64,000 bases of DNA from the NCBI GenBank assembly GCA_903935335.1, contig CAIZRG010000029.1:5406-69405 (forward strand), given 5' to 3'. The DNA comes from Oligoflexia bacterium (lineage in GTDB: Bacteria > Bdellovibrionota > UBA1018). Both the position numbers and the translations under genes were made by a program. Positions 9,920-12,083 of the stretch are shown piece after piece; within the stretch, counting starts at the first letter, position 1; each line of letters begins with the position of its first letter. The notes under the pieces were generated by a model. That model was not told where the DNA came from and searched no databases. It saw only the letters and a program-made list of their open reading frames with translations.

Positions 9920-11029
9920 TCAGGAGCTTTCGAGTAGCCGCTCCAAAATTTCAGTAAAAACGGGAGTTTGGATGATTTCTTCTGCTTTTTGTTTGAAGAG
10001 ATCTGTGGGAACACACCCAGCTCCTGCTAAGTTATAAAGCAATAAATCACCCCCAAAATAATTTGAAACTTTTCTGAATCCTTGGCCTGTACGACAAGTG
10101 GCTTGCCATTCACCAAAAACTGAATCTAAAGTAGTATCGAGATTATATAAATTGCCTTCAATTTTTTGATCTTGCTTGCCGAAAAACTGTACCGTTCCTT
10201 GCATCTGAAAGAGATTGCCACCTAAACGAACCCAACCATTACTCATAAAAAATAAGGAAACTGTATCTTTCTCAGGATCAATCTTCTCTAAAAACTGATT
10301 CATGAGATGGACCACTGGATTCATACATGGCTCATCAGATACCAAGCACCCAGCATCAATACAAAAGAGAACTTCCCCTTCAGCAACTTCAACTCTTTCA
10401 GCTCTATGCACAGGAGAGACCGAACAAGAACCACAAACCACCGATGCGAGTGACACGGAAGGGTCTGTCTCAGTGCTAAAAGACCGCAAAGAAGTCCCCT
10501 GAGGAATCATCTGAAACCAAGGGTTCCATCCGTGAACTTCAGCTACGACAATTCGCAAGGGTCTAAGGGTATCCTTCATGCAAAATGCAGGTATTACGTT
10601 GTCTCCTGCAATTTTTTGTTTGAACCGAGTCCGAATCCTGCTTGCACTGTAAAATTTTGAGAAAACTTCTTCTAAAAAATCAACTACTTCAGAAGCTGAC
10701 CAGGGATCAGAACTACCGGGCTTAGGAAGAAGCAGCATCGAGCCAATCATCGAACCAATCGAAGAACCCCAAACTTCATCAAAAAGCTCATAAATACGTT
10801 TTCCGCTTTGCTTTTCCAAATGATTCAGGACTGTGGCTGAAATAATACCTGTAGCTCCCCCACTTGGAAGAACTAAAATCCGATAATCTTGAGCCTCCAC
10901 CCTCACTGGATGCATAAAAAACCCAATCCATGTGATTAAAAGGACTGCTATTGAGCTATTCTTTGTAAAGAAATAAGTAACCACCCTGATCAATATCCTG
11001 CCACATTTGTGATTCCCTGCCAAATTCAA
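9920..11029 (-). CDS. Secreted patatin-like phospholipase
   Basis: Oxyanion-hole-like LPSGGATG, nucleophile elbow GSSIG (GxSxG) and downstream DAG/DGG-type motif (IDAGCL). Long N-terminal region with hydrophobic h-segment …SSIAVLLITWIGFF…VEA. The 5' end overlaps the USP-like gene by 74 nt; the true start is uncertain. Confidence 0.65.
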   Translation of the reverse strand: MNLAGNHKCGRILIRVVTYFFTKNSSIAVLLITWIGFFMHPVRVEAQDYRILVLPSGGATGIISATVLNHLEKQSGKRIYELFDEVWGSSIGSMIGSMLLLPKPGSSDPWSASEVVDFLEEVFSKFYSASRIRTRFKQKIAGDNVIPAFCMKDTLRPLRIVVAEVHGWNPWFQMIPQGTSLRSFSTETDPSVSLASVVCGSCSVSPVHRAERVEVAEGEVLFCIDAGCLVSDEPCMNPVVHLMNQFLEKIDPEKDTVSLFFMSNGWVRLGGNLFQMQGTVQFFGKQDQKIEGNLYNLDTTLDSVFGEWQATCRTGQGFRKVSNYFGGDLLLYNLAGAGCVPTDLFKQKAEEIIQTPVFTEILERLLESS

Positions 11030-12083
11030 TCGGAGTCACGTGCAAATCATTATGCAAAACCCAATGATTCTTTTCCTTTTGAATGTAAGCAACATAGTGA
11101 CCTGCTCCATCACTTCCTCGATGCACAACCACACCTCTGAGGGAATATGGTTTCTTCTCAACAAGAAGATGAGCGGGGTTTAGATTCTGATAGAAATCAA
11201 GGGAGATTTTATCAGAATGCTTCACGGCGAAATTTTTTTCATTCAACACCATCAGGATTTGATGAGGGATCTCATCAGGTGAATCCAAGGTCAATTGATC
11301 TGTAATTTGAGCAAGTTCTTTTTTACCATTATCATCTCGCTTAATAGGTCCATCAGAATCTTGCGTTTTAAAATAATGAGCTAACAAATTAATAAAAAAA
11401 GGGCTAGAACTATGTAATGCAGAATCTAAAGGAATCGGCAGCGTAAAGTTTTTTTGATCCGGGGTCTTTATAACAACAGGTTGAACTGTTCCATCTTTAA
11501 ACGTAATATTTTTAGAAAAATAATATCCCCCAATCAAACTCTTTAAATCTAAAATATCATCGAGGTTCGATAAATAAGCCAAAGCATCAACCTGATCTTC
11601 TCTCACTTTCGAAGGAATATGGAGTAGATCAATGTTTTTAGAGCCATGATGGTCAGGTTTCAAATTCCAATCATTTAAAGCATCAAAAAATTTATTTAAT
11701 GGATCCTCAAAACCATGCCCTTGAATTCCTGCCCCTTTGGGGTCTTTCTGTAACTGCTCCCAGTTTTCACTCAATTGATTCATCAAGGAAAAATAAAGCT
11801 TCTTAGCTTCTTGATCCTTAGGAACAGTTTCGGAATCTGGAAAATCTACAGCGGCCCATAAAAGTTTGTGAACTGAATTTGCAAAACACGTATTACCTAA
11901 TTGAGCAAAACCAAGGGCAGCAGAGTAACTTTCAGTCAAGGGATCCCTTAGACTTGGACTAAGGGACGGAGGGGACTGAACAACCCATTGAGTGCTATCT
12001 CCACCACCAGGAAGACATCCCAGAAATCCCAATAACCCTAAAAAAAATAAAACTCCCCGCCAGTTTAATAAATTCTTCACCAT
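10956..12083 (-). CDS. Secreted lipoprotein with eukaryotic-type ubiquitin-specific protease (USP, peptidase C19) domain
   Basis: Signal peptide + lipobox-like LGFLGC. Cys box GFAQLGNTCFANSV (cf. G-[LF]-x-N-x-GNTC[YF]-x-NS). His box YSLRGVVVHRGSDGAGHYVAYIQ followed by WVLHNDLHV (cf. Y-L-x-A-VVVH-G-x4-GHYTAY … W-Y-x-FDD-x-V). ATG at 12081..12083. Confidence 0.75.
   Translation of the reverse strand: MVKNLLNWRGVLFFLGLLGFLGCLPGGGDSTQWVVQSPPSLSPSLRDPLTESYSAALGFAQLGNTCFANSVHKLLWAAVDFPDSETVPKDQEAKKLYFSLMNQLSENWEQLQKDPKGAGIQGHGFEDPLNKFFDALNDWNLKPDHHGSKNIDLLHIPSKVREDQVDALAYLSNLDDILDLKSLIGGYYFSKNITFKDGTVQPVVIKTPDQKNFTLPIPLDSALHSSSPFFINLLAHYFKTQDSDGPIKRDDNGKKELAQITDQLTLDSPDEIPHQILMVLNEKNFAVKHSDKISLDFYQNLNPAHLLVEKKPYSLRGVVVHRGSDGAGHYVAYIQKEKNHWVLHNDLHVTPIEFGRESQMWQDIDQGGYLFLYKE

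Follow-up and report, generated by a model that had tools for sequence, protein, structure and literature searches.

A predicted lipoprotein with a ubiquitin-specific protease domain in an Oligoflexia bacterium, and its bacterial relatives

The gene and its locus

The DNA analyzed here (the window) is a stretch of 64,000 nucleotides (nt) from contig CAIZRG010000029.1 of an Oligoflexia bacterium (Bdellovibrionota; assembly GCA_903935335.1). On its minus strand lies an uninterrupted, ATG-initiated open reading frame (ORF) whose product of 375 amino acids (aa) reads as the precursor of a lipoprotein with a ubiquitin-specific protease (USP; peptidase C19) domain (Table 1). A first reading of the letters, referred to below as the original prediction, had proposed a secreted lipoprotein of this kind, and the motifs that it quoted (LGFLGC at residues 18 to 23, GFAQLGNTCFANSV at 58 to 71, and YSLRGVVVHRGSDGAGHYVAYIQ...WVLHNDLHV at 312 to 349) are all present in the translation. 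The codons of the lipobox cysteine and the catalytic triad were read by hand: Cys23 (tgt) at 12017-12015, Cys66 (tgt) at 11888-11886, His329 (cac) at 11099-11097, and Asp346 (gat) at 11048-11046.

A 100% identical protein is encoded on 11 contigs in an assembly index, which stem from several independent metagenome assemblies and reach 241 kb in the longest case (ENA ERZ27229619, k141_30455). The order of genes around it is constant across contigs: glmU, glmS, uvrD, asmA, a small predicted lipoprotein, ppx/gppA, the USP gene, a patatin-like lipase, a GAF-PAS protein, a PHO4 transporter, and a phoU-like gene. The GC content of the USP gene (0.379), its GC content at third codon positions (GC3; 0.306), and its codon usage (r = 0.78) are within the spread of the neighboring genes; lon, taken as a comparison gene, gave 0.375, 0.259, and 0.80, respectively. 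Because the gene is identical on independent contigs, keeps a constant bacterial neighborhood, and is of ordinary composition, we regard it as a genuine and long-standing bacterial gene. A recent horizontal import and contamination were considered and rejected, since the gene does not stand out from the locus in either composition or codon usage.

Table 1. Window coordinates of the USP gene, its parts, and adjoining features
Feature	Coordinates	Strand	Basis
Complete coding sequence, 375-aa USP-type (peptidase C19) lipoprotein precursor	10956..12083	-	ORF list; PF00443; same call on metagenome contigs
Predicted signal peptide with lipobox, residues 1-23 (n-region K3/R9, h-region VLFFLGLLGFLG, F-L-G-C)	12015..12083	-	PS51257-type rule; hydropathy
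Gly/Pro/Ser-rich disordered tether, residues 24-47	11943..12014	-	pLDDT <50 for residues 21-36
Cys box GFAQLGNTCFANSV, residues 58-71, catalytic Cys66 at 11888-11886	11871..11912	-	Alignment; PDB matches
USP box 2, Q164-V-D166-A167-L-A169-Y170-L, equivalent of "QQDAxEF"	11571..11594	-	Motif recognition by eye
Fingers-type beta-sheet and adjacent palm elements, residues about 187-280	11244..11525	-	Model strands; profile alignment
His box YSLRGVVVHRGSDGAGHYVAYIQ...WVLHNDLHV, residues 312-349	11037..11150	-	His329; gatekeeper Tyr330; Asp346
Patatin-like phospholipase gene, co-directional, downstream of USP gene	9920..10915	-	PF01734, 53.8 bits; 41 nt after USP stop
Candidate sigma-70-like promoter, TTGAAT-17-TAAAAT	12094..12122	-	Consensus scan; about 10 nt upstream of USP ATG

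The USP domain and the lipoprotein signal

Profile searches place the window protein in the USP family. It matches PF00443 (UCH, the USP/peptidase C19 family) with 68 bits (E = 1.3e-18) against a gathering score of 23.9, and its match to PF13423 (UCH_1) also exceeds the threshold of that model; no NCBIfam model for it was found. A phmmer comparison with all PDB sequences returned USPs only. With a family profile built from the window protein and 19 relatives (the 20-sequence alignment to which the conservation values below refer), USP8 was matched at an E value of 1e-24 and the group of USP8, USP2, USP7, USP18, USP46, and USP12 at 1e-24 to 1e-19, in alignments that run from the Cys box to the C terminus. 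The USP (C19) domain of the original prediction is borne out by these searches.

Structure prediction agrees with the profiles. The AlphaFold2 (AF2) model has a predicted local distance difference test score (pLDDT) of 82.7 and a predicted template modeling score (pTM) of 0.82, and the top 50 Foldseek matches obtained with it are all USPs, at E values of about 1e-15. Upon superposition, 262 residues could be placed on USP12 versus 169 on TssM, a bacterial USP that lacks the Fingers subdomain. The model contains strands at residues 187-195, 200-204, 214-217, 258-266, and 275-280, and in the profile alignment the two Fingers hairpins of USP8 correspond to residues 187-217 and 258-280, where the four zinc-ligand cysteines are replaced; the CxxC pairs of a zinc ribbon are absent from this region. 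Taken together, the model and the profile alignment display the Thumb-Palm-Fingers architecture of the USP/C19 peptidases, and at this level of prediction computation shows the full fold with a complete catalytic triad in register, as had been proposed.

Cys66, His329, and Asp346 are invariant in the alignment, as are G58, T65, F67, N69, Q164, G323, and G328, and at least 90% conservation is seen for Y330, Y333, W341, H344, V349, A167, and Y170. In the Cys box (GNTCFAN), a helix of the model begins at residue 66, with the nucleophile at its N terminus. The His box comprises G328-H329-Y330 and, about 17 residues downstream, Asp346 (in HNDLHV), and its best local matches in the phmmer search against PDB were USP28, USP12, and USP25. 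Box 2 was assigned by eye only, and the HMMER alignment put the QQDSQELL of USP8 elsewhere in this region.

The N terminus has the features of a bacterial lipoprotein signal, in agreement with the lipobox-like LGFLGC pointed out at the outset. Residues 1 to 23 satisfy a PROSITE PS51257-type lipoprotein rule, applied as a regular expression; hydropathy peaks at residues 10 to 23, with the predicted h-region at 10 to 22; and at least 90% of the aligned sequences have Cys in the column of residue 23. The strict rule finds a lipobox within the first 60 residues of 34 of the 100 top database matches, and about 10 further near-misses were seen by eye; among the 13 genome- or metagenome-derived relatives, 10 have a lipobox by rule or by eye. 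From this signal we infer export and lipidation of the window protein. In all members, the lipobox Cys is followed by a linker of roughly 10 to about 100 residues that is rich in Gly, Pro, Ser, Gln, or Asn. The genes lgt, lspA, lnt, and lol are not in the 64-kb window.

Cysteine content differs between lipobox-type members and the other matches. In the mature window protein, the nucleophile Cys66 is the sole cysteine, and the lipobox-type members have a median of one Cys in the mature chain, with two or more CxxC motifs in 0 of 34. The remaining, mostly eukaryote-type matches contain Cys at 1.35% of residues and have two or more CxxC motifs in 16 of 66 cases. A zinc-free, single-cysteine domain would suit folding and staying reduced outside the cytoplasm. 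We are highly confident that the window protein is a genuine USP-family enzyme made as a lipoprotein, and it is probably catalytically competent.

Bacterial relatives, known USPs, and neighboring genes

A word-indexed search of 5.8 billion proteins returned only the query itself. An exhaustive HMMER search of 1.84 billion cluster representatives yielded 194 proteins at E ≤ 1e-3 and 31 at E ≤ 1e-10. Apart from tandem arrays, the best matches are bacterial-type proteins of 340 to 450 aa that are 25 to 41% identical to the query; the closest (P0003; 41% identity) is the protein of Oligoflexia metagenome-assembled genome (MAG) Umea1_bin-2153, in which an ORF (locus L006) has the same N terminus and length. 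Two long matches (P0004 and P0007; 1918 and 2009 aa) were rejected as close relatives; they are eukaryote-type tandem USP arrays (GATCYLNS, CxxC-rich) with scores summed over domains. A TC[FY][AS]N signature is carried by 55 matches of 250 to 700 aa, which form about 55 clusters at 50% identity, so that the expectation that a secreted C19 member would be rare was too strong. For 51 of these 55, the best match is another signature member (median, 174 bits, versus 100 bits to signature-less matches). In all nine relatives tested, PF00443 was matched from profile position 2 to position 252-254 of 254. The typical design consists of a lipobox, a disordered tether, and a USP domain without zinc-ribbon cysteines, with one Cys in the mature chain. 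These predicted exported USPs are an old, diversified bacterial family centered on Oligoflexia and no recent eukaryotic import.

Relatives were located by scanning a genome collection (one genome per species) with the pattern N[LR]G[NS]TCFAN, outside which the QLGNTCFAN of the window protein itself falls. They occur in four MAGs of Oligoflexia and one of Oligoflexales, of which some have two or three copies; in cultured Fluviispira multicolorata 33A1-SZDP (orthologue at L007, 7947-9077); in a MAG labeled Nannocystis exedens (two copies) and a Myxococcota MAG; and in a genome of Endozoicomonas, a Cytophagales MAG, and a proteobacterial MAG without further classification. Endozoicomonas lives as a symbiont of invertebrates. 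Oligoflexales have been associated with cnidarians (PMC10701089), and the Silvanigrellaceae, which include Fluviispira, contain the Daphnia pathogen Spirobacillus cienkowskii as well as human wound and blood isolates (PMC7386786, PMC10645651, PMC11385108). The ecology of the carriers is compatible with contact with eukaryotes.

Copy number and architecture vary within the family. Uncultured Oligoflexia MAG CAYSZE01 has two lipoprotein USP paralogues in tandem, 40 nt apart (L011, 7673-8875 and 8916-9980), with a third copy on another contig (L009), and the Umea1 Oligoflexia MAG has two copies; such gene-family expansion is reminiscent of effector families. Architectural variants among P0015, P0041, and P0075 (the latter equal to the L013 type) comprise two USP domains in an 851-aa chain, an Ig-like HYDIN/VesB domain with a USP domain, and RCC1 repeats with a USP domain (about 1100 aa). 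The Endozoicomonas protein (L017) is 954 aa long and has no signal peptide. A second short USP-like group (P0049, P0060, P0067, and P0089) has cleavable-looking signal peptides or N-terminal hydrophobic segments, a Cys box of the GNTC[YF]LN type, and coiled-coil C termini; these proteins have a bacterial rather than a eukaryotic look and may form a further prokaryotic USP group that is unexplored.

Compared with eukaryotic USPs (USP12/46, USP2, USP30, USP8, and USP7), the window protein shares the Cys/His/Asp triad, the aromatic gatekeeper, the box-2 Q-x-D-A, and the Fingers hairpins, at about 15 to 21% identity. It differs in having a lipoprotein signal and tether in place of cytosolic regulatory domains, in having no zinc-ribbon cysteines and no mature Cys other than the catalytic one, and in the replacement of the oxyanion Asn by Gln and of the box-2 Glu by Ala, with a shorter loop after "LKRF." USPs of giant viruses (Nucleocytoviricota) are matched with similar Foldseek significance (E about 1e-15; 12 to 17% identity among the top matches), but they are no closer to the window protein than are cellular eukaryotic USPs, and no particular link is indicated.

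The original prediction held that these motifs are essentially restricted to eukaryotes, which overstates the case in view of the bacterial enzymes TssM and SnUSP1-3 (PMC10719079, PMC10371091, PMC10643670). TssM of Burkholderia pseudomallei/mallei and Chromobacterium is a USP-type deubiquitinase and ubiquitin esterase that is secreted through Sec and the type II pathway (PMC10719079) and strips the ester-linked ubiquitin that RNF213 places on lipopolysaccharide (LPS) (PMC10719079, PMC10371091). Its whole Fingers subdomain is deleted and a "Littlefinger" loop takes its place, and it has an N-terminal Ig-like domain (PMC10719079); the window protein, in contrast, has Fingers and no Ig-like domain and was for these reasons not assigned to the TssM-type fingerless subgroup. 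In the papers cited here, TssM is described as type II secreted with no mention of a lipid anchor, whereas the window protein has a lipobox. SnUSP1-3 of Simkania negevensis have a whole USP domain with conserved active-site residues and gatekeeper and are active on ubiquitin (PMC10643670). They are large, have hydrophobic regions that possibly serve membrane attachment, and belong to an obligate intracellular bacterium (PMC10643670), whereas the present family, by comparison with that published description, is short (about 340 to 450 aa), lipobox anchored, and found in Oligoflexia and Myxococcota. TssM, a bacterial USP that leaves the cytoplasm by a general secretory route, is the functional model for the mechanism proposed below; the window protein would work most like TssM in its biology and most like canonical eukaryotic USPs in its structure.

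Neighboring genes were compared by tblastn of all window ORFs against 15 related loci, and no shared neighbors were found. A patatin gene adjoins the USP gene in none of the relatives examined, and the contexts at L007, L011, and L021 were unrelated by manual inspection. With ubiquitin as the phmmer query, the best hit among 827 ORFs of the window and the related loci had an E value of 0.9, and no plausible small protein ending in Gly-Gly was seen among these ORFs near any family member; the prokaryotic ubiquitin-like target that had been suggested finds no support in these gene neighborhoods. PADLOC gave no match for the USP, and the neighborhood contains no CD-NTase/cyclase, E1/E2, or JAB genes. 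Because there is no conserved neighbor, no ubiquitin-like protein, and no defence gene nearby, the USP looks like a stand-alone exported enzyme.

The patatin-like gene, a candidate operon partner of the USP gene in this genome alone, was called from the ATG at 10915 (MHPVRVEAQ...; 331 aa), and its frame is open upstream to a TTG at 11029. Alternative starts at TTG 10993 and GTG 10984 would add a signal-peptide-like IAVLLITWIGFFMHPVRVEA|QD and would overlap the 3' end of the USP gene by about 30 to 40 nt; if such a start is real, both genes may encode exported enzymes and be translationally coupled. Upstream of the USP gene, the candidate promoter is located in the 244-nt intergenic spacer that follows ppx, and it is a weak candidate because the region holds no more sites of this kind than expected from shuffling. 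Also in this spacer (12169-12297, minus strand), one frame reads ...YGIRSRIWLLHTAGNPGSFLLLQDDGSLAIFMEDRPIWTAETN*, which looks by eye like the final repeat of a bulb-type mannose-binding lectin domain; only ORFs of 23 to 46 aa are present there, with no Pfam match, and the frame could be a gene remnant or chance. Between asmA and ppx, a 152-aa ORF (13276-13734, minus strand) starts with a lipoprotein-type signal (MKQMNKKNILLVIGMLVSIGC|SS), is coiled-coil-like in its C-terminal half, and has no family match in Pfam, NCBIfam, or PADLOC.

Elsewhere, the window carries unremarkable chromosomal genes (lon, CNNM transporters, a histidine kinase, malic enzyme, beta-oxidation genes, an ABC/HlyD/OEP exporter, RNase D, and RF3). 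At 49949-55943 (minus strand), an outer membrane efflux protein, an HlyD-family adaptor, and an ABC transporter make up a type I secretion-like cluster, which is adjoined by a 587-aa protein with no Pfam match at E ≤ 1e-5. Positions 1-104 (minus strand) hold the start (~104 nt) of a bacterial 16S rRNA gene (Rfam RF00177, 74.8 bits), near which a metagenome contig with the same locus seems to end, and a tRNA gene lies at 3340-3412 (minus strand). A 535-aa YdcK-type beta-solenoid repeat protein is encoded at 36622-38229 (plus strand); homologues of it (44 to 51% identity) flank the USP homologue of Umea1_bin-2153 (L006, 7282-7713 and 10676-11381), which may mean no more than that these genomes share a repeat family.

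Possible roles of the putatively exported USP

On balance, we lean with modest confidence toward a full ubiquitin-directed model in which the window protein acts outside the cytoplasm as a membrane-tethered USP and removes eukaryotic ubiquitin on the bacterial surface or close to it. The precursor would cross the inner membrane through Sec, Cys23 would be diacylated by Lgt, signal peptidase II (LspA) would cleave, and Lnt would N-acylate the product. If the sorting rule of Escherichia coli is assumed, Lol would then transfer the lipoprotein to the outer membrane, because the residue at position +2 is Leu and not Asp. A flexible leash would hold the USP domain on the periplasmic side or, more probably, on the outside of this membrane, and shedding in vesicles would be possible. 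The Fingers would bind the ubiquitin globule and the USP domain would hydrolyze the bond after Gly76, the substrate being conjugates that the bacterium encounters upon contact with eukaryotic cytoplasm, namely, ubiquitin that host ligases have attached to the bacterial surface or to the membrane around the bacterium. Removal of this ubiquitin would blunt ubiquitin-dependent killing, as secreted TssM does for Burkholderia, except that here the enzyme would be surface anchored and its USP domain is canonical.

Several observations weigh against this model. The +2 rule is an E. coli rule that may not apply to this phylum. Eukaryotic ubiquitin is cytosolic, so that a lipoprotein reaches it only if exposed on the surface or released, and genes for type II, type III, type IV, and type VI secretion systems are absent from the window. 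One carrier, F. multicolorata, is a creek isolate that grows in culture and has no known intracellular phase (PMC7386786). The protein itself departs from the consensus at three positions. Gln61 occupies the oxyanion position, five residues before Cys66, where 90% of the relatives have Asn. Gln fills the oxyanion role in papain, and by analogy the function is plausibly kept. Ala169 stands at the position of the box-2 Glu, where about 10 of the 20 aligned proteins have Asp or Glu (judged by eye); a conserved USP Glu has been described as a contact for Arg72 of ubiquitin (PMC10719079), and equating it with position 169 is our own reading. Finally, Glu282 replaces the nearly invariant Arg of "LKRF" and is followed by a deletion of ~12 residues. 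These departures leave the triad untouched, but because of them and the deletion, the affinity of the window protein for ubiquitin could be reduced or altered.

The main alternative is that the USP fold was repurposed as an extracytoplasmic cysteine peptidase for a nonubiquitin substrate and that the likeness to deubiquitinases is a matter of ancestry only. The substrate might then be a bacterial protein of the envelope or a secreted one, a Gly-Gly-terminated peptide, or protein of prey or host that is digested as food. We consider this possible although unlikely. Export delivers the enzyme to a compartment that is normally without ubiquitin, the zinc ribbon is lost and the box-2 acidic residue is variable in the family (and Ala169, Gln61, and Glu282 are present in the window protein), the carriers include free-living freshwater isolates (PMC7386786) and predatory lineages, and the fusion of some members to Ig-like (HYDIN/VesB) or RCC1 domains suggests other partners. 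However, the aromatic gatekeeper beside the catalytic His, a feature typical of deubiquitinases (PMC10643670), is conserved and the S1 scaffold is retained; no gene for a ubiquitin-like or Gly-Gly-ended substrate is linked to any family member; and all bacterial USPs tested to date act on ubiquitin (PMC10719079, PMC10643670).

Less probable again, as a specific form of ubiquitin-directed activity, is that the lipoprotein USPs serve surface self-cleaning, i.e., that an outer membrane deubiquitinase/esterase strips host ubiquitin in cis from the bacterium's own LPS and outer membrane proteins. If so, Oligoflexia that are thought to be free-living in freshwater or marine habitats would regularly enter or meet the cytoplasm of eukaryotes (protists, zooplankton, or invertebrates), and the presence of two to three copies per genome and of tandem pairs would reflect an arms race with host ubiquitin ligases.

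We think it improbable that the USP and the patatin lipase form a two-gene ubiquitin-directed module in which, for example, the USP supplies or controls the free ubiquitin that activates the lipase. The genes are co-directional and 41 nt apart or overlapping, and the upstream extension of the patatin frame resembles a signal peptide. Precedents would be ExoU and VpdC of Legionella, which are ubiquitin-activated patatin phospholipases (PMC7665212, PMC9860323). Against such a module, the adjacency is not conserved, there being no patatin neighbor in any relative examined, and the 331-aa lipase has a single Pfam match, to Patatin (residues 52-227 of a 369-aa ORF). ExoU has a C-terminal ubiquitin- and membrane-binding domain, and the lipase leaves little room for a domain of that style; it is otherwise similar to generic or defence-type phospholipases, at scores far below the cutoffs.

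That the gene is nonfunctional or nonbacterial (a decaying pseudo-enzyme, an assembly chimera, or eukaryotic contamination) is very improbable. Measured against the family, three conserved positions are substituted and one short stretch is deleted, which could be read in this way, but the ORF is intact, the triad is invariant, and the fold is predicted with confidence; the identical protein recurs on 11 contigs, always in the same bacterial neighborhood and with locus-typical composition; and the protein has a bacterial lipobox, which eukaryotic USPs lack. We regard this reading as effectively refuted. Least probable of all is an antiphage defence system of the cyclic-oligonucleotide-based antiphage signaling system (CBASS) type, with a patatin effector and a module for conjugation and deconjugation of a ubiquitin-like protein: a patatin with weak similarity to CBASS/DS2 phospholipases does adjoin a deubiquitinase-like protease, but it scores only 48 and 36 bits against NCBIfam cutoffs of 400 and 200, the USP has no PADLOC match, its neighbors are ppx, patatin, GAF-PAS, PHO4, and asmA with no CD-NTase, E1/E2, or JAB gene among them, and its export is incompatible with Cap3-like action in the cytoplasm.

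The ubiquitin-directed surface model remains our preferred reading, and the locus has significance beyond it. Full-text searches of the literature returned no description of lipoprotein USPs, nor one of a ubiquitin-directed enzyme in Bdellovibrionota or Oligoflexia, although the Pfam USP domain was already automatically annotated on this protein in the sequence collection that was searched. TssM was called the only described bacterial USP-type enzyme as late as 2023 (PMC10719079), and the characterized USP-type deubiquitinases of bacteria are a handful, namely, TssM and the three Simkania enzymes. To these the locus adds a whole family with a canonical, Fingers-containing domain that appears to be fitted for extracytoplasmic life. 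One carrier, F. multicolorata DSM 107810, is in culture, so that the role of the enzyme is directly testable. Should the family prove inactive on ubiquitin, it would be the first case of a USP fold with a nonubiquitin extracytoplasmic substrate. Should it prove active on ubiquitin, it would offer structural and biotechnological work a minimal USP scaffold free of disulfides and zinc, would widen the concept of surface deubiquitination and de-esterification that TssM introduced, and would flag cryptic eukaryote-associated lifestyles in these bacteria.

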